Source: Gemmatimonadota bacterium
GTDB taxonomy: Bacteria > Gemmatimonadota > Gemmatimonadetes > Gemmatimonadales > GWC2-71-9
Direction: 5' to 3'
Length of the DNA: 11,866 nucleotides
Assembly (NCBI GenBank): GCA_036679605.1
Contig: JAZDCZ010000401.1
Span: forward strand, 1-11,866
Under the pieces are notes generated by a model, which was not told the DNA's origin, searched no databases, and saw nothing but the letters and a program-made list of their open reading frames with translations. Positions 1 to 11,663 of this stretch are shown here, one piece after another. The position numbers and the translations under genes were made by a program. Position 1 is the stretch's first letter, and each line of letters starts with the position of its first letter.

Positions 1-270
1 GACCAGGGAGAAGCGCCAGGTGCGGTCCCCAGTTTGTGTCTGATTCCGGGGCGTGCGTTCACGAGGCAGGGACACAGGCTCGGCCGTGGCCATGGCTGCT
101 ATGATCGATTGATGTCGTCGCTTGCCGCGCTAGGCACGACGGTGGGGGTCGCGTACGATTGTCAGATCGTGCCGGAGCTTCCCGTTGAATCCTTCGACCG
201 CTCGGTCGAGTGCCTTGTAACCGAGGTTGGATTGTCCAGCTGTCGTTCGATTCCCTCGGTAACCCGGTAG
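1..270 (+). CDS. 5-formyltetrahydrofolate cyclo-ligase (YgfA/MTHFS family), C-terminal part; 5' end is outside the window
   Basis: Frame is open from base 1 (DQGEAPGAVPSLCLIPG...). It carries the family motifs IPGRAFTRQGHRLGRGHGCYDR (cf. VPGxAFDxxGxRLGxGxGYYDR) and AYDCQIVPELPVESFDRSVECLVTE. TAG at 268-270. Confidence 0.9.
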   Translation, partial: DQGEAPGAVPSLCLIPGRAFTRQGHRLGRGHGCYDRLMSSLAALGTTVGVAYDCQIVPELPVESFDRSVECLVTEVGLSSCRSIPSVTR

Positions 271-279
271 GCAAGCCTT

Positions 280-1407
280 GTGATGCGCCCGGTCGAAGAA
301 CAATTGCAGATCATCAAACGGGGCGCCGTCGAGCTTATCGACGAAGACGAACTCAGAGAAAAGTTAAAGGGTAACCGACGGCTGCGTGTAAAAGCCGGGT
401 TCGATCCGACCGCGGCCGATCTCCATTTAGGCCACACAGTCCTGATCGAGAAGCTTCGGCAGTTTCAAGAACTCGGTCACCAGATCATATTTTTGATCGG
501 TGATTTCACGGCGCGTATCGGAGACCCAACTGGCAGGTCCGATATCCGCCCGATGCTCAGCGACGAGGAAATCCGACACAACGCTGAGACCTACCAGGAG
601 CAGGCATTCAAGATCCTCGACCGAGAGGCAACCGAGATAGTGTGGAACGGGACGTGGTGCGAGCGTCTCGGTGCCGCCGGGCTGCTCCGGTTGGCGAGCG
701 AACACACCGTGGCGCAATTGCTCGAGCGCGACGACTTTCAGAAGCGATACAAGGGGCGACAACCGATTGGCCTGCATGAATTCCTCTATCCCGTATTGCA
801 GGGATACGATTCGGTCGAATTGAAGGCCGATGTCGAACTCGGCGGCACTGACCAGAAGTTCAATCTATTGATGGGCCGCGACGTGCAGAGGAACCGCGGA
901 CAGGCGCCGCAGGTGGTAGAAATGTACGGCAAGCTGATGTCGATTTCCGATGGACTTATGGTGCGCTACTACGAACTTCTGAGCTCGGCCAGCGAGGAAA
1001 GGTTGGAGGCCGTTCGCTCGAGCGTGGTGCATCCCATGGAAGCCAAAAAGGCTCTGGCGGCCGAGATCACCGGGCGGTTTCATGGAGCCGTGGCTGCGGC
1101 GGCCGCAGAGGCGGATTTCAGGCAACGCTTTCAGAGGCACGCGCTACCCGATGAGATTCCCGAGTTCCGTTGGCCGGGAACCGAAGCTTCCCTGTGGATC
1201 TGCCGGTTGTTGACCGAGACCGAGTTGGCCGGGGCTAAGCTTGCGAAATCCAATGGGGAGGCGCGGAGATTGATCGCCCAGGGCGGAGTCAAGGTCGACG
1301 GAGCCCGGGTGATCGACGCCGATGCCGAGGTCGAGGCGAAAGGGGCAGCGCTCGTGCAGGTGGGGAAGAGACGGCTCGTCCGCGTGATTTTTGCGGCCGG
1401 AGCCTGA
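280..1407 (+). CDS. tyrS: Tyrosyl-tRNA synthetase with C-terminal S4 domain; the KMSKS loop is missing in frame
   Basis: [15 protein letters not shown] (HIGH motif), [46 protein letters not shown], and S4-like [18 protein letters not shown]...VGKRR. Start is GTG 280 or ATG 283. PQVV joins EMYGKLMS directly, with no KMSKS. Confidence 0.95.
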
Positions 1408-2181: not shown

Positions 2182-3840
2182 ATGGACGGTTCGCGTCAGA
2201 GGCGTCTGCGTAGTTCAAACATTCTTTTCTCCGCGATCATGGCGGCGTTCACCCTAGCGACTGCTCTGGGCGGCGGCGCGTTGGCGTTTGCTCAGTCCTC
2301 GACCTGCCTGACGCAAAAGTCCCGCCACGTGAGAGCTGCGGCATCGCGGGCGTGCCGCGCCTATGTCACCGCGGCACGCCACGGTACGGCACCGGACCTT
2401 TCACGCATGGACCGCGTGCGCGTTGACACTGCCTGCCGTGTGGATGTTGTTGCGGTCTGCGCTGAGCTGGCGGGACTGTGTTACGGAGCGGCCTTCGATT
2501 CGGCGACGGCAACGTTTTTGAATCCGGTAGGCGATCGATGTGCACGCATTATCGGGACGAGCTGCAAGTCGGCTCTGAAAGCCGAGATGAAATCCCCGGG
2601 ACACGCCACGGCACGCCTGGCGCGAATTGCGCGTCGATGCAGTGGCCCGATCGACGGAGATCTCGGCGGCGCTTGTGCGACACAGACCGCCGTTGAGGGA
2701 GCTATCCAGTGTTTGGCCCCAGAAGTTGCGAGTCTTTCGAGACGCATCGTTACGCCTCCACCTATGTCGTCGAACGGCGAAACGTGGGTACGCCATCGCG
2801 GCGGGACGGTGTGCAAGGGGGCACTGGCCCAGCCCTTGCCGGGCACTGACGTTTGGGTATCTCCAAGCGGCGACGATACCAATCCCGGCACATCCGACGC
2901 ACCTTTGCGTACACTGGCCCGCGCGCTCTGTAACGCGATACCGGGTCAGACGATTCACGTGGGTTTGGGTACCTATGGCGAATCGGTACTGTTGTCGGAG
3001 TTCGGAGACCCGATGACGCCGATTCGGATCATCGGCGAGGTTGGACCTCAAGGCGAACTGCCGGTACTCGACGGCGGAGGCACCCTGACGATGGGCATCG
3101 CCATCATAGGTGAGGACATTACGCTAAAAAGCGCCGGCTTTGTCATCGAGGATATCGAGACGAAAAACTATACCGACGAGGGGATCCTGGCCGTCATTGC
3201 AGAGAATGTAACCGTGCGTGGCTGTCGCGTGCACGACAACGGTTTTCATTCCATCGACCCCGATGCGGACGGCGAAGGCTTCGGCGTGTCCTTGGTTGAC
3301 GTGACGGGTGCCCTGATCGAATCCGTCGAGGCCTATGCCAACGGGCCGGACATGGCTCGCCAGGGCCGCGGAATTTTGGGTACCGGCATCGATGTGTTCG
3401 GCTCCGACGACGTAACCGTGCGTGGCTGCGATCTGCACGACAATATCGGCGGGGGCCTACTCATAGAGGACTGCGCAAACGCCCTGGTCGAAAACAACAC
3501 GATCCGTGCTAACCATCTTGACGCTGCCGGTGACTACTGGGACGGCGGAATCTGGGTCGACGGTGGCCACGACGTAACTGTGCGTTCCAACACACTCAGC
3601 GGTAACCTCGGGCCGGCAATCGTGCTGAGCGACGAAGGAGTACAAAACCCCACGGGGTACGCGATTATCGACAACACGCTCGACGGCAACTTCTGGGCAA
3701 TTTACCTGTGGAACTTTGGCGTATGTCCCTGGCCGGCCCCGACTGTCGTAGCCCATTCGGGGAACGTGTTCACGAACAGTACGCGCAGCGATATCCTGTG
3801 TAATCCGTGGGAATGCGGTGTCGGTAAGCCCTGTGGCTGA
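2182..3840 (+). CDS. Secreted right-handed parallel beta-helix protein (pectin-lyase fold, DUF1565-like start) with a Cys-rich N-terminal domain
   Basis: Basic/hydrophobic signal peptide ending ALAFA|Q. About 140 aa with 10 Cys, then VWVSPSGDDTNPGTSDAPLRTLARA (from 2851). PbH1-like repeats follow (VTVRGCRVHDN, VTVRGCDLHDN, ALVENNTIRAN, VTVRSNTLSGN). Alternative ATG at 2239. Confidence 0.85.
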   Translation: MDGSRQRRLRSSNILFSAIMAAFTLATALGGGALAFAQSSTCLTQKSRHVRAAASRACRAYVTAARHGTAPDLSRMDRVRVDTACRVDVVAVCAELAGLCYGAAFDSATATFLNPVGDRCARIIGTSCKSALKAEMKSPGHATARLARIARRCSGPIDGDLGGACATQTAVEGAIQCLAPEVASLSRRIVTPPPMSSNGETWVRHRGGTVCKGALAQPLPGTDVWVSPSGDDTNPGTSDAPLRTLARALCNAIPGQTIHVGLGTYGESVLLSEFGDPMTPIRIIGEVGPQGELPVLDGGGTLTMGIAIIGEDITLKSAGFVIEDIETKNYTDEGILAVIAENVTVRGCRVHDNGFHSIDPDADGEGFGVSLVDVTGALIESVEAYANGPDMARQGRGILGTGIDVFGSDDVTVRGCDLHDNIGGGLLIEDCANALVENNTIRANHLDAAGDYWDGGIWVDGGHDVTVRSNTLSGNLGPAIVLSDEGVQNPTGYAIIDNTLDGNFWAIYLWNFGVCPWPAPTVVAHSGNVFTNSTRSDILCNPWECGVGKPCG

Positions 3841-4171: not shown

Positions 4172-4792
4172 TCACCCGGTGTGGGTGCGACGTACCTCTC
4201 GTTTCATATCTTCCCAGCCCTCGATGGCCCTACGGCACGACTGCGAGTTGATGCAGAGGTGCGACCAGATGGACAGTGACGGTGTCGCTATAAGCGGAAT
4301 CGCGCCGCGACTACGGCTTTTCTTGCAAACCCCGCAGGGGGCGACGATCAATACGACCGCGGAGTCAGGCTGGGCGGCCAAGCGGACCAATCCGTCCAAA
4401 TTGAAGAGCGTGACGGCAGTGTACTCCATGTCGGGATCGTTGATCGGGCCGTGCAAATCAAAGGGACGGGTTTGTACGTCGCCGGCCCAGTGTTGGCGGT
4501 TGAGTTCGGACATGCGGGTCTGCACGTTCGGGCTCGCGTCGATTTTTCTCAGTTCGTCATCTGAAGCGTCCCGGCGATCTCCGTAACCCAAGCCTTCGCG
4601 GATGAACCATTTGAGTTCATCGTGGAGGTCGGTGGAACTCGCCAGGCTGGTAACGACGATGTCGATCTCTTTCTTGTATTCGAGAGACTTACCGATCCCC
4701 GGCCATTCGCTGAGCTGGTCCGCTATTGTCGTCGGAACGAACGGGGGCACGGGGAGTCCTACGAATCCTACGTCGGGAAGATTCTCGAGCGA
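4172..4792 (-). pseudogene. 5'-truncated SorC/DeoR-type sugar-binding domain gene (C-terminal part)
   Basis: EIDIVVTSLAS, AGDVQTRPFDLHG, VVLIVAPCGVCKKSR and IWSHLCIN resemble the Sugar-bind (NagB-like) fold pattern. The frame extends upstream of 4750 (SLENLPDVGFVGLP) to a TAG at 4793-4795, which lies inside repeat copy 2. No HTH and no convincing start. Confidence 0.55.
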
Positions 4793-4874
4793 CTAGGCCT
4801 TTTAAGTGCGCGTAGGGAAGTGTCGAATGCGGTCGATAATATCGATTATGTTTACTGAGAGGCTGTCGGTACCG
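4789..4874 (+). repeat. ~85-bp direct repeat, copy 2, containing a dif-like site (4829-4856)
   Basis: Core GCGGTCGATAA-TATCGA-TTATGTTTACT has the 11-6-11 layout and ATAA-N6-TTATGT signature of E. coli dif (GGTGCGCATAA-TGTATA-TTATGTTAAAT). The right arm matches 9/11. The repeat itself is certain; the dif function is inferred. Confidence 0.9.
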
Positions 4875-4921: not shown

Positions 4922-5404
4922 GTGCCCTGGCGGCTTTATCGCATCGAACGCGAGGCCAAGCGCGACGGCCTGCGCGGCGAGGAACTCGTGCGCCTGCGTG
5001 CGGGGGAACCCAAAGCGATGCTGGCGGTTTTGGGTGAGTATATCGAACGGCTTAGGCCGACGACGCTGCCGAAAAGCGGGCTCGGTACGGCGATTACGTA
5101 TGCCCGATCACAATGGCCGTCTATCACGCGCTACCTTGCGGTGCCCGAGGCCGAGCTGGACAACAACAGCTGCGAGAACGCGATCAGGCCGCTGGCTCTG
5201 GGCCGCAAGAATTGGCTGTTTGCCGGCAGCGAAGCCGGCGGACACCGAGCGGCAACGCTATTTTCCATCGTCATCACGTGCAAACGGCTCGGCATTGACC
5301 CGCAGGACTATCTCGCCGATATCCTGGCCCGTATTCCCACGCACAAGCTCTGACGCATCGAAGAGCTGACGCTGCGGGCCTGGCAGGCCGCACGCGAATC
5401 GTAA
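4922..5404 (+). pseudogene. IS66-family transposase (TnpC), C-terminal fragment with an internal stop
   Basis: LYRIERE, LPKSGLGTAITYARSQW, ELDNNSCENAIRPLALGRKNWLFAGSEAGG and TCKRLGIDPQDYLADILARI are diagnostic. After TGA 5351-5353 the frame continues RIEELTLRAW (cf. RIDELLPWNW) to TAA 5402-5404. The N-terminal part, tnpA and tnpB are absent. Confidence 0.95.
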
Positions 5405-6638: not shown

Positions 6639-8600
6639 TCACGGCTTGCAACTCACCCGTTTTCCGCTTCCGCCTTGCCTGCAGCGTGCGGCGGCAGTGA
6701 AACAGTCGTCGCCGATGTCGAGAACCGCTTCCAGGCCCGCCCCGGGGTCTTGAAGGCTCACGTCCCGGGCCTTGACACGCCACCGCTCTGTTCCGTCGTT
6801 GCGGACTTTAAGGCGGGCGCGCCTGATTCCTCCGGCGACCGCTCCGGTCGGATCGCGAAACGTGAAGCTCGTACCGGAAGGCCCCGCTCTAAAGGTACCC
6901 GCGGGAATCGTTGCGGTATAGACGGTGCCCGTCGCATCGGCCAGCACGACGCTGACGTCCTCGGACAAAGGGTCGAGTGCGCCATTCGCCGAGGCGGGGA
7001 GACTACCGCGAAGAAGCAAGGTGTCATCTGCGCCCCCGGGCCCACTGCTGAAAAACCCCAGACGGCCCCGCTTGAGTACCAGGTTCTGATCACGCCGGGT
7101 CGGGCAGAGATCGCAAAGATCACCGATCCCGTCGCCGTCGCTGTCGATCTGCTCGGGATCGGGAATGCCGGGGCAGGTGTCGGGGACAGATTTGAGGAAC
7201 TCCACCACATCGGCACGCTGTTCGTCCTTCCACTTGAGATCGAAAACAAACTCGTGACCCCGTACTCCACCTGGTTTGTCCGCCCCCGGTGGCGTGCCGG
7301 TGGCGATAAAACCTGGCTTCAGTCGGGCCTTGTCGAAAACTTCCTCGATCGTGGCGAGGGTTCCATCGTGAAAGTAGGGCGGCGTTGCCCACAGGTTGGC
7401 CAAGGGTGTGACACGGTAAAAGCCGGATGCGATGACACCCTTGGTCGTGAGATCGGGATCGGTGCCGATGACGCTGAGGGGAATCGGATCCAGGTTTGAG
7501 TAGCGACCCAGGTGTGGCGAATGGCAGTCGTCGCATCCCGAGTCGAAGAAAACGCGGCGTCCTCGCCGCGCAGCTATGGAATCCACGTTGGGGTTCTCGA
7601 TCAACTGGTCGAGCACGTAGCCGTACACCGCGAGCCCTTCCAGCTCCTCTGGCGTCGCCGGGCGTTGCGCCGCCTCGAGGTTCGCCGAGCCTGCATTGCG
7701 GGCGTCGATGCTTATCGCCAGTGCCGTAAACTCAAGGCGCGAGAATCCGGTTGTATAGAGGTGTGGTGGTATGTTGCTGGGATTGCAAGCGCTCCCCGTG
7801 ATGATCACCCCCACATCCAGCCGTCCCGGTCCCCAGTCCTGGAGACAATGCTTCTTGGCGGGGGAGAAGGATGGGGAGAACGCCAGCATGGCGCCCAGAT
7901 CGAGCTGGATATTGGGCAGCCCCTCGACCTCGGCGCCCGTCAGCGGATCGGTTCCCGTGTGACAGAAGACGCAGGTAGTTCCGTAACGAACGGTGCCCGT
8001 GCCGTCGAGCATCTTACGGATTCCGACCCAGCCACTGCTCAGGTTCCCGAGGGGGTCGAGCGTACCGGGTGTGTCTTCCGGTTCATCGGCGGGGATGAGC
8101 CCGAAGTTCTCCCCCTGGGCGAGGATAGTCTCCCACGGGATGCCCAACTGATCCGTCAGCACGACCTCGTTGCCAAAGGTCTCTTCCTCCCACCCCTCTT
8201 CCCCTAGTTCGATCGCATCGGCGAGCGCAACCCCGGTGACGGTGAAGGGAACTCCGTTGCTGTCTTCCCATTGGGTCAGCGTCAGGGTCTGGTCGCCGAA
8301 CGTGCGCAGCTTGGTGCTTTGCAGTGAGACCACCACTTTACCCGGGGTGGCTCGGGGAGGGACTTCAACGATGATCTGGCTGTCGGACCAAAGCTGGACG
8401 ACTTGAGCGTCGAGGAGATCGAAACTGACAGTACCGCCCCCCTGGACGGTTCCGAACCCGGCCCCCGTTATCGTCACCACCGTGTTCCAGGGCCCTGCCT
8501 GCGGGCTCACGTCGGTGATGTTCGGGCTGCATCTTGCCGGGGACGGGGCGAGCAAAAGAAAGCAAGGCAACAAGACGATCGCAACAATGGCCTTTTTCAC
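6639..8600 (-). CDS. Secreted multidomain di-haem c-type cytochrome: IPT/TIG + di-haem (CCP/MauG/RoxA-like) core + TSP3 Ca-binding repeat + C-terminal beta domain
   Basis: Signal peptide MKKAIVAIVLL. IPT motif PNITDVSPQAGPWNTVVTITGAGFG...WSDSQIIVEVP. CXXCH motifs CVFCH (7959-7973) and CDDCH (7521-7535). LWATPPYFHDGTLATIEEV and GHEF. DTCPGIPDPEQIDSDGDGIGDLCD (~7101-7181). SD GGAG before GTG. Confidence 0.85.
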   Translation of the reverse strand: MKKAIVAIVLLPCFLLLAPSPARCSPNITDVSPQAGPWNTVVTITGAGFGTVQGGGTVSFDLLDAQVVQLWSDSQIIVEVPPRATPGKVVVSLQSTKLRTFGDQTLTLTQWEDSNGVPFTVTGVALADAIELGEEGWEEETFGNEVVLTDQLGIPWETILAQGENFGLIPADEPEDTPGTLDPLGNLSSGWVGIRKMLDGTGTVRYGTTCVFCHTGTDPLTGAEVEGLPNIQLDLGAMLAFSPSFSPAKKHCLQDWGPGRLDVGVIITGSACNPSNIPPHLYTTGFSRLEFTALAISIDARNAGSANLEAAQRPATPEELEGLAVYGYVLDQLIENPNVDSIAARRGRRVFFDSGCDDCHSPHLGRYSNLDPIPLSVIGTDPDLTTKGVIASGFYRVTPLANLWATPPYFHDGTLATIEEVFDKARLKPGFIATGTPPGADKPGGVRGHEFVFDLKWKDEQRADVVEFLKSVPDTCPGIPDPEQIDSDGDGIGDLCDLCPTRRDQNLVLKRGRLGFFSSGPGGADDTLLLRGSLPASANGALDPLSEDVSVVLADATGTVYTATIPAGTFRAGPSGTSFTFRDPTGAVAGGIRRARLKVRNDGTERWRVKARDVSLQDPGAGLEAVLDIGDDCFTAAARCRQGGSGKRVSCKP

Positions 8601-8666: not shown

Positions 8667-8972
8667 CGATCATTCCTGCAACACCATGTGGAGAACTCCC
8701 CGAGGAGAAGCTGCCGACAGGCGCGGCTCTTGACCGGCGTGGTTATGGGCGACGACACGGGCCGGTCGGGTTTTCGCCCATCATTCTCCCTCTGCCGAGG
8801 GACCGACGAGCGGGCCATGACGGACAGAGGGTTGCCGTGTTGCATCCGAACAAACTGAGTCGCGAAGACTCCCATGCCGGCCCGATCTGTACCTGCTTGC
8901 TCCTTTAGTATCTTGAGAGGTCGAGGCCGAAGGTACAGGGCCCTATTGTACTCCAGTTCGCAGAGGGTAAAT

Positions 8973-11663
8973 GTGACAACTGATATGAGACGAACGTACG
9001 AAAGCTGTTCTGGCGCGCTCACTGCCTGCGCCGTTGTTGCGTTGACTTGCCTCGCTCCCGCGAGCGCATTTGCGCTGGAGACGATCTCGGGGATCATTCG
9101 TTCCGCGACTACCGGCGCACCGCTGCAGGGGATCGATCTTGATGTGTTTGACGCCTCGACCGGTAGAACGGTCGCTATAACCGGTGACACGACCGGCGCG
9201 GCCGGAAACTACACGGTGACGCTGCCCGGACCCGGATCCTACGTAATCCGCACCGATCCGACCGCCGCACAAGGAGTTGCCAGCCAGTACTACAACGGCG
9301 TCTTTCTGAAGAGTCAGGCCCAACCCATCGTAGCCGCTATCGGCTCGGCGACCATGGGAGTCGATTTCTCGCTCCCTGCCGGGGTCATCTTGAGCGGAAC
9401 GGTTACCTCCGGGGGACTAGGTATCGCGGGCGTCGACATCGACGTATTCGCGGACAACGGTGAGTTCCTGGGCGCGTATAACGCGAAAACCGCGGCCGAT
9501 GGCAGCTACGCGGTCGGCGCACTACCGCCGGGCAACTACGTCGTACGCGCCGACCCCGATATCGCGCTGAATACTCAACTATTCACCCGTACCTATTTCG
9601 CAGGTTCGGCAGACCTCCTGGGAGCAACTCTGATACCCGTAGGAACGACCGATGTCAGCGGAATCGACATGGCGTTGACGCCCGGTGGAACGATCAAAGG
9701 AGTCGTGACCGCCGCCGCAAGCGGGCTTCCGTTGGCCAACATAGACCTGGACCTTTTCGATCTCACGGGCAAACGAATCAACGTACAGGCCAAGAGCGAC
9801 CTCATTGGTCTGTACGAGATCGGCGCCGTTCCAAGCGGCAGCTATCTCCTTCGGGTGGATCCGAGCCTTGCGCAAGGCTACGCACGCACGTACTACGTCT
9901 CGTCTGCCGCCGAAAGCAGTGCAGCACCGATCGCTGTGGTGGCAGGATCCCGCACAGGCAATGTCGACTTCGCAATCGCAGATGGCGGCACGCTCAGTGG
10001 CACTATCCGAGCGTCGGGTATCGGAACGCCTTTAGCGAATATCGACCTCGACCTCTTTGATTCGTTCGGCAGCTTCCTCGCGACCTACACCGCAAAGACC
10101 GACGTGGCGGGTAATTACCAGATGGGCCCGTTGGCGCCGGGGACTTATTTCATACGAGCGGATCCGACTGTCGCCCAGGGTTATGCCGACCAGTTCTGGC
10201 CCGCCGCAGTCGATCTAGTGTTCGCCAGCGCCGTCACCATCAGCGTCGGCGCCGATACCGCGTTGATTGATTTCGACCTCGTCTCCGGGAGCGCGGTCAC
10301 AGGCACCGTGCGTGATATTGGCGGGATGGCGCTGTCCGGAATCGACCTGGATCTATTCGATGCTGCCACCGGCAGTCGACTTCGCCAGGGATCCACCAGT
10401 ACCGTCGATGGTACCTATCGCTTCGATTCACTCGCGCCGGGCGGATATCTGGTCCGAGCTGACCCCACGGGTATCCAGGGATTCGCCCGCCAGTACTTCA
10501 ACGGTCAGTTGGCCAAGGCGGTTGCCGATGTCGTTGTGACAGGAGCCGGCGCGGCGACTACCGGCGTCGATTTCGCACTTGACCTAGCCGGAACCTTATC
10601 CGGGCAGGTCCTCGATGCAGGCGGGGTGCCCGTGGCCGGTATGGATATGGACGTATTTAACGGACAGGGTCTAGGCGCCATTCGAATGGACCAGCCGGCG
10701 GTCACCGACGTAACGGGCAACTACTTATTCGAAGCTCTACCGCCGGGAAACTACATCGTGCGCGCAGATCCCGATCCGGCGGTGTCGCTACCAGTGTATC
10801 ACCCGGCAACAACCGATCCCGCACTGGCCACGCTCATCCCGCTGGCACCCGGGCAGGCCGCCGTAGGCAAGAACGTCACGCTTGGCACAACGCTTTCTTC
10901 CGCTCAGAGCACCGCCCAACAGTCATGCCTCACCGCGTTACACAAGGACCTCGCCAGGGTCGACAAGACCCAGGGACGCGAGATTCTACGCTGTATCAAA
11001 AAGAAGGCCGGCGGCAAACTGAGCGGTACGGTGGAGAATTGCATCATCCAAGACGCCAAAGGCAAGCTCGCCAAAGCTGCGTCAAGAACGGTATCTGACT
11101 TCAACAGACGTTGTGTGGCTCAATTGCCCACGATTGGAGCGACGGATCCGCAAGTCGTCAACGATGTCGGGCGGCAAGAAGAGACGAACGTCGCACACCG
11201 GATGTTTGGCGTCGATCTGGACGTCGGGATCGTTACCTCTGCCAACGGCGCCACCCGTTCCGTCTCTAGTTGTCAGCTCGCGCTGTCCAAGCAAGCGGCA
11301 AAGTGCAGTCTGACCAGGATTAGTGGGTTCTCACGTTGCCTAAAAAACGGACTAAAGAGCGCTGCGGTCGTGTCCGCCGGCACACTGTCGAGCTGCCTGG
11401 ACCAAGATCCGGCCGGACGGATAGCCAAGGCCTGCGGCCCGGTCGCCGGCAAGCTCGGGCGCATAATAGGAAGCCGCTGCAACCTTGCACCTGCAGAACT
11501 TTCCGCAGCCCTTCCCGGCTGCGCAGGAGCTACCGCTGGTGTAGCTGAGTGCGTCGACGGCATACTCGCATGCAGCGTATGCACCGGCCTCAACACCGCC
11601 GACGCCCTCGGCCGTGACTGCGACCTTTACGACGACGGCACGGCTAACTCGAGCTGCCAGTAG
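8973..11663 (+). CDS. Large secreted protein: six ~100-aa carboxypeptidase-regulatory-like (prealbumin/Cna-B-type) beta-sandwich repeats plus a Cys-rich helical C-terminal domain
   Basis: Signal peptide ending APASAFA|L. The repeat consensus GxxxGxV..GxPLxxIDLDxFD..T..GxY...LxPGxYxxRxDP..QGxAxxY..DFxL occurs six times. The last ~250 aa contain 16 Cys. Start is probably GTG 8973 (SD GAGGG 8963-8967) or ATG 8985 rather than 8874. Confidence 0.85.
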   Translation: MTTDMRRTYESCSGALTACAVVALTCLAPASAFALETISGIIRSATTGAPLQGIDLDVFDASTGRTVAITGDTTGAAGNYTVTLPGPGSYVIRTDPTAAQGVASQYYNGVFLKSQAQPIVAAIGSATMGVDFSLPAGVILSGTVTSGGLGIAGVDIDVFADNGEFLGAYNAKTAADGSYAVGALPPGNYVVRADPDIALNTQLFTRTYFAGSADLLGATLIPVGTTDVSGIDMALTPGGTIKGVVTAAASGLPLANIDLDLFDLTGKRINVQAKSDLIGLYEIGAVPSGSYLLRVDPSLAQGYARTYYVSSAAESSAAPIAVVAGSRTGNVDFAIADGGTLSGTIRASGIGTPLANIDLDLFDSFGSFLATYTAKTDVAGNYQMGPLAPGTYFIRADPTVAQGYADQFWPAAVDLVFASAVTISVGADTALIDFDLVSGSAVTGTVRDIGGMALSGIDLDLFDAATGSRLRQGSTSTVDGTYRFDSLAPGGYLVRADPTGIQGFARQYFNGQLAKAVADVVVTGAGAATTGVDFALDLAGTLSGQVLDAGGVPVAGMDMDVFNGQGLGAIRMDQPAVTDVTGNYLFEALPPGNYIVRADPDPAVSLPVYHPATTDPALATLIPLAPGQAAVGKNVTLGTTLSSAQSTAQQSCLTALHKDLARVDKTQGREILRCIKKKAGGKLSGTVENCIIQDAKGKLAKAASRTVSDFNRRCVAQLPTIGATDPQVVNDVGRQEETNVAHRMFGVDLDVGIVTSANGATRSVSSCQLALSKQAAKCSLTRISGFSRCLKNGLKSAAVVSAGTLSSCLDQDPAGRIAKACGPVAGKLGRIIGSRCNLAPAELSAALPGCAGATAGVAECVDGILACSVCTGLNTADALGRDCDLYDDGTANSSCQ
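9081..10885 (+). repeat. Six tandem ~300-bp diverged coding repeats
   Basis: Motifs IDLDVFD, VDIDVFA, IDLDLFD (x3) and MDMDVFN, each followed by RxDP, recur about every 100 aa. Confidence 0.85.

Follow-up and report, generated by a model that had tools for sequence, protein, structure and literature searches.

How can a tyrS gene be read without interruption when the KMSKS loop of its product, tyrosyl-tRNA synthetase (TyrRS), is missing? This question is raised by a contig of 11,866 bp, which was analysed over its whole length and is referred to below as the window. An earlier note on this DNA had offered three answers: an assembly or sequence artefact, a recent deletion for which a second tyrS compensates, or a repurposed paralogue. 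The first of these is the best supported, as the gap is private to this contig and near-identical DNA from other samples enters the missing segment. We put the probability that the 90-bp gap in tyrS is an assembly artefact at about 0.8. The source organism, a Binatia-like bacterium, most likely has an ordinary TyrRS of 404 aa.

The tyrS gene and its missing segment

The tyrS open reading frame (Table 1) encodes 374 aa from the ATG at 283, or 375 aa from a GTG at 280, and is 30 codons short. As the earlier note had stated, it contains neither stops nor frameshifts; PQVV directly precedes EMYGK. The TIGR00234 profile recognizes the protein in two stretches with 322.9 bits (curated cut-off 113.8), whilst the intact protein P0002 is matched in one stretch with 371.3 bits. 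Pfam detects PF00579 and the S4 domain PF01479, the latter with 25 bits at a cut-off of 22.8.

Table 1. Features at and around the tyrS junction (alignment A1 includes the window protein; X5 is a public sequencing run, and P0002 and P0003 are the closest proteins)
Feature	Position	Strand	Basis
5-Formyltetrahydrofolate cyclo-ligase gene, 3' part	1-270	+	PF01812
tyrS, tyrosine--tRNA ligase, Thermus/Acinetobacter type	283-1407	+	TIGR00234, PF00579, PF01479, PDB 6bqy/1h3e/6byq
HIGH-type motif HLGH, intact	424-435	+	H48, G50, H51 invariant in alignment A1
Tyrosine-pocket motif YPxxQxYD, intact	787-810	+	Y169, P170, Q173, D176 invariant in A1
Junction codon, 90 bp missing, 2 nt shared (GT, 916-917)	916-918	+	X5 overhangs; records 3 and 29; P0002/P0003 alignment

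The closest solved structures are those of the TyrRS of Acinetobacter baumannii (6bqy), Thermus thermophilus and Helicobacter pylori (PDB 1h3e and 6byq were also matched). When aligned with 6bqy, residue 213 of the window protein pairs with residue 219 and residue 214 with residue 250. Exactly 30 residues are therefore absent, and the same number is missing relative to P0002 and P0003, close to the size of about 30 aa proposed earlier. They comprise everything between the end of the last Rossmann strand and the beginning of the next helix, KMSKS included. The KMSKS loop that characterizes bacterial TyrRS under TIGR00234 was not found in the contig sequence, and its reported loss is real at that level. 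According to First and Fersht, as excerpted in PMC10450160, residues of the KMSKS loop stabilize the transition state of tyrosine activation. Going by established class I structure, the adenine pocket would be lost along with the KMSKS segment.

Elsewhere, the protein is preserved. H48, G50, H51, D74, Y169, Q173, D176, and Q191 are invariant in alignment A1, and these residues, the Pfam matches and the predicted model all agree with the earlier claim that the HIGH motif, the tyrosine-binding motif and the anticodon-binding and S4 domains are intact.

A clean break between positions 918 and 919 had been proposed. The in-frame loss stands, but the exact site does not. P0002 and P0003 have a Val at each end of the missing segment, so that an alignment may put the gap before or after the Val encoded by 916-918, and matches of the window in public contigs run through 917 on the left flank and from 916 on the right. 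The DNA break therefore lies inside this codon. Within 780-1060 of the window, a comparison outside which the missing bases fall, no long repeat touches the junction.

The segment in relatives

The distance from a GGxDQ anchor to a motif in the downstream helix is 25 in the window, compared to 55 in 71 and 56 in four of 76 related loci (one was unparsed). KMSKS is present in all 76 and in four loci without this anchor, i.e., in 80 of 80, none of which shares the 30-codon loss. The loss is equally absent from the best 119 homologous proteins, 118 of which carry K[MLI]SK[ST] and one KMRKS in a segment of full length. As the 8,000 best candidates were scored and the best 120 listed, the privacy of the gap is stated for near relatives. 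The same deletion, which the earlier note had suggested looking for in relatives, was thus encountered in none of them. Among the proteins listed, P0002 is the closest (333 of 374 residues identical, 89%) and P0003 the second closest (83%); both are 404 aa long. The window protein forms a cluster with one member, known from a single contig, the window itself.

When written as a degenerate DNA pattern, the junction peptide found no match in the viral collection, and a viral origin of the gapped tyrS was discarded for that reason. One match in the JGI metagenomes lies within an unrelated gene (L093) and was rejected as a second example: it encodes a 682-aa membrane protein, which may be antiporter-like, and is no tyrS, and the match is one of chance. 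Among 130 loci searched at up to 3 mismatches, only the window's own junction was matched. Among the papers listed in a literature search, from which absence from print does not follow, none concerned a bacterial TyrRS lacking KMSKS.

Two further variants were seen. The only tyrS of genome G046 (L132, contig C143) has an in-frame TAA before the end of the catalytic core, probably another error in a metagenome-assembled genome (MAG). Four genomes of a sister family in the bin's order (L082-L085) encode a Thermus-type TyrRS with the variant motif KMSQS.

Owner of the contig and the second tyrS

A 5-formyltetrahydrofolate cyclo-ligase gene is located directly upstream of tyrS (within ~300 bp) in 10 loci, including L001-L004 and L006. 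Because the same gene adjoins tyrS in the closest Binatia-like loci, the window tyrS is the orthologous, housekeeping locus of a Binatia-like lineage. In a quick tree of 38 rows (seven chosen loci, for which no protein was parsed, were left out), the window TyrRS groups with P0002 and P0003, followed by L001 and the Binatia locus L002 (SH-aLRT 95-99). The window contig (C337) is Binatia-like and foreign to its bin, G000.

The bin measures 6.7 Mb with a contamination of 6.3%, whereas its family comprises 18 genomes with sizes of 2.4-4.4 Mb. The TyrRS type of the window is absent in all 18 (no match had an E below 5.8e-25; 17 of 17 when the unpublished G015 is excluded). Two other families of the bin's order were represented by 12 genomes, five of which carry it with 53-57% identity; these are far more distant than the Binatia-like matches, and the loop is present in the four that were parsed. 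In a comparison of 21 regions of the same-genus genome G001, covering about 0.4 of 3.7 Mb, 342,587 bases were alignable to G000, 333,038 of which on contigs of at least 20 kb. The 2.0 Mb of smaller contigs, C337 included, are mostly foreign. The tetranucleotide and GC profile did not clearly separate the window contig, with a median of ~58% GC in all size classes.

The search for a second tyrS, another check that had been proposed, had a twofold outcome. An intact gene was found in the bin on contig C357, but it provides no cover. It encodes a TyrRS of another type (KFGKT), 27% identical to that of the window, and its region is syntenic with G001 over 5 kb at 74.8% identity. It belongs to the bin's main organism, whilst the window contig is foreign, and was for that reason rejected as a backup for the gapped copy. 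The same contig contains, at ~125,190-129,990, repeats of 28-32 nt at a spacing of 61 nt, which resemble a CRISPR array.

In the order to which the genome of L001 belongs, exactly one tyrS locus was found in 27 of 31 genomes and none in four, with the window protein and the other type as queries, and all 15 loci fetched from this order encode KMSKS. The proposal that a second tyrS makes up for a recent deletion is weakened, since the C357 copy belongs to a different organism and the nearest order is single-copy. Loss of tyrS would be lethal in an organism with a single copy, and such an organism should not survive a deletion of this kind.

DNA downstream of tyrS

The DNA 3' of tyrS is strain-variable (1398-2073): contigs of run X6 leave the window behind 1398, and a contig of run X2 joins 1409 to 2073, thereby omitting a toxin-antitoxin-like pair at 1486-1966. 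A copy of this pair with 97% identity is present on G000 contig C196 (9310-9945; L131). The HTH antitoxin (1643-1966) is intact and has a HigA-like match below the cut-off. Only ~42 C-terminal codons are left of its upstream partner, as 161 bp that the C196 copy has at ~1522 are missing from the window. We take this remnant, which had no match in NCBIfam, to be RelE/HigB-like.

An 86-bp direct repeat (2020-2104 and 4789-4874, 92% identical) encloses a beta-helix gene (2182-3840) and a 192-aa ORF without a Pfam match, and may bound an insertion. A C-terminal remnant of an IS66 transposase follows at 4922-5353, with a related piece on contig C220 (89% DNA identity). The minus strand at 6639-8600 encodes a 653-aa protein with a signal-like N-terminus and matches to a TIG domain and a RoxA-like cytochrome c. 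A plus-strand gene at 8874-11663 encodes a 929-aa protein with carboxypeptidase-regulatory-like repeats and a Cys-rich C-terminal domain, relatives of which occur on four more of the bin's small contigs.

The junction in contigs of other samples

Six public runs share part of the window. Contigs from four of them (X1, X2, X5, and X6) were compared, whilst X3 and X4, with a small word share, were left out. The comparison concerns assembled contigs, which drop rare variants, and the statements below cover the pieces listed (291 more exist; for X5, eight of 77 records were listed). Coordinates of minus-strand records follow the record's own direction, as checked for records 31 and 32 against the overhang at 1398.

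Record 29 of X6, with a depth of 50.9, is identical to the window in 111 of 111 letters over 807-917 and then continues with four letters unlike the window. Likewise, the match of X1 record 3 stops at 917, where 11 non-window letters follow. In X5, an overhang of 15 letters behind 917 reads V-L-T-M-P-L in frame, just as the missing segment begins in P0002. From the other side, three X5 contigs reach 916 from overhangs with the consensus end T-E-P-A, which is the end of this segment in P0002; among the best 119 proteins, the ending (T/S)(D/E)PAV occurs in P0002 and P0003 only. The overhangs thus represent the ends of the missing segment and do not reach KMSKS itself. Since those in X5 match the segment ends of P0002, both ends of the missing piece exist on these flanks in near-identical populations.

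Among the listed pieces of the four runs, no contig crosses 916-918, and X2 has no listed piece at the junction site. Contigs that start exactly at 916, in X5 and X6, could point to a deletion allele. For X6 this was rejected, as record 29 of that run passes 917 unbroken; for X5 they may still be such a sign. Two strains are present in X5, one of them without a single difference from the window in three of the listed pieces (1170-1335, 1369-1553, and 1937-2200; depth 12-15). Its record 22 crosses the 161-bp shortening with no difference. The shortening is therefore real, and because record 22 bridges it, a real deletion allele can appear in X5 contigs. The window's own strain probably carries the missing segment at 917, although a short contig of this strain that bridges the junction may be present among the other pieces of X5.

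Selection and predicted structure

Of 40 strain differences listed (139 more exist), 24 lie within tyrS, where 14 of 20 codons are synonymous. The terminal branch of the window TyrRS in the quick tree (0.083) falls between those of its sisters (0.066 and 0.099). Of 126 columns conserved in at least 95% of 112 relatives, the window misses 15 by the gap and two by substitution (T88I and R145Q, neither of which is located in the HIGH motif or the tyrosine pocket). At least two substitutions at these columns are found in 13 of the 112 relatives, and the level in the window is slightly high; the TyrRS of T. thermophilus likewise has Gln at the position of R145Q. Judged by these comparisons, the rest of tyrS shows neither decay nor relaxed selection, and few signs of a new role.

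The predicted model of the window protein has a TyrRS fold (mean pLDDT 87.3), with T. thermophilus TyrRS as the best match (TMq 0.73). Its pLDDT is 61-67 over residues 211-230 and below 50 at 218-221. In the model of the intact P0002, predicted with a pLDDT of 87-96 over 201-250, residues 211-215 form a strand, followed by short bridges and, at 241-249, a helix. The window model is strained at the junction, where the helix that opens the next domain is drawn into the strand and an unwound linker.

Origin of the gap

Of 136 oriented overlaps between contig ends of G000, 64 measure 114 nt, which is the mark of a short-read graph assembly with a largest word near 115. A false join in such a graph takes more than two shared bases, so the join reflects either real junction reads or a step outside the graph. 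Ns are absent from the 6.7 Mb of the bin. According to the excerpted text of PMC7111523, sequence is left duplicated where scaffolds are joined in spite of an overlap, and wrong protein sequences are spread by local errors; the excerpt of PMC11017572 attributes many apparent pseudogenes to assembly errors. The small contigs of G000 contain 27 exact two-copy tandem duplications (15-101 bp) in 2.0 Mb (13.5/Mb), 16 of which are not a multiple of 3 in length. As controls, 22 were found in 4.7 Mb of large contigs (4.7/Mb), two in 0.4 Mb of G001 (5.0/Mb), and one in 0.46 Mb of other loci (2.2/Mb). The excess fits faulty joins, but the small contigs may instead stem from organisms richer in repeats. 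Reading frames may be broken by seven of 16 duplications, vs. 34% in the controls. Gaps of at least 20 nt between G000 and G001 (15 missing from G000 and six from G001) come from ~0.34 Mb at ~72% identity and are not diagnostic.

An assembly artefact could have arisen as follows. The short-read graph would have broken on both sides of the KMSKS-coding stretch, fragmented by co-occurring strains, and the flanks would then have been joined over a true gap with the intervening bases dropped, by a wrong scaffold distance or the removal of Ns. Such a join would be the mirror image of a duplication, i.e., a deletion without homology, and the frame would have been kept by chance (1 in 3). If so, the locus is a warning that a MAG gene which has cleanly lost a catalytic module in frame can pass family cut-offs, give a well-folded prediction, and be stored as a separate protein, and that a "second copy" within one bin can be that of another organism.

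It is unlikely that the 90 bp were instead truly deleted, very recently, between two GT dinucleotides, or that a chimeric molecule of the library prevailed in the consensus; either event would leave a dead enzyme, devoid of the KMSKS loop and of the residues near the adenine pocket. The 2-nt microhomology and the in-frame cut also suit a natural deletion, the same strain carries the real 161-bp shortening 600 bp downstream, and the source organism may have an unseen second tyrS. However, tyrS is single in all 27 genomes of the order with a match, X6 is identical through 917 and has no branch there, and a lethal allele is unlikely as the consensus; such an allele would be restricted to a minority of the chromosomes or to a strain that has another tyrS, as yet unseen. 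Should the loss be real and tolerated, it would show, as a natural experiment, what a TyrRS is capable of without its KMSKS module.

Very improbable is an activation-null paralogue, i.e., a tRNA-binding protein or a silent subunit paired with an active TyrRS in a heterodimer, in a strain whose housekeeping tyrS has just lost the KMSKS module and which lives on an unseen second TyrRS: the frame, the tyrosine pocket, the dimer interface, and the anticodon-binding and S4 domains are kept, the model still has a TyrRS fold, and inactive synthetase halves exist in trypanosomes (excerpt of PMC9437257), but the 80 loci, 119 proteins, and two pattern scans yielded no second example, the gene occupies the orthologous locus with an unrelaxed HIGH motif and tyrosine pocket and a rate that is not raised, an active partner in the lineage is not known, and the predicted model is strained at the junction. 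If true, this repurposing, for which the analysis gave no support, would mark the origin of a catalytic null among bacterial TyrRS.

Comparison with known systems

The window TyrRS has the HLGH motif, tyrosine pocket, dimer region, and helical anticodon-binding and S4 domains in common with TyrRS of the Thermus/Acinetobacter/Helicobacter type. Nearest to it are P0002 and P0003, with 89 and 83% identity outside the gap, and the Binatia-like loci L001 and L002. In contrast to TyrRS of the Thermus type, the protein as written lacks KMSKS. Thus, as written, it would not be a working TyrRS, but the underlying gene probably encodes one.

Catalytically inactive synthetase forms like those compared here are conserved and coexist with an active enzyme. 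Splice variants of human TyrRS have reportedly lost catalytic elements while keeping the tRNA-binding parts. In contrast to such conserved forms, the window TyrRS is a singleton at a housekeeping locus. The loss of catalytic elements with retention of tRNA-binding parts also likens it to the pseudo-dimeric TyrRS of trypanosomes and to LeuRS2, as far as these are covered in the excerpt of PMC9437257. In the same excerpt, the cyclodipeptide synthase AlbC is described as lacking the C-terminal tRNA-binding domain; unlike cyclodipeptide synthases, to which it therefore does not belong, the window TyrRS keeps its helical and S4 domains.

MAG assembly errors as presented in the excerpts of PMC7111523 and PMC11017572 are alike in that an essential gene is broken on a short, misbinned contig, and in the duplications at probable joins elsewhere in the assembly. 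The cases in the excerpt of PMC7111523 concern unsupported sequence and duplications with Ns, whereas the loss seen here is in frame and free of Ns and would follow from the same type of join.
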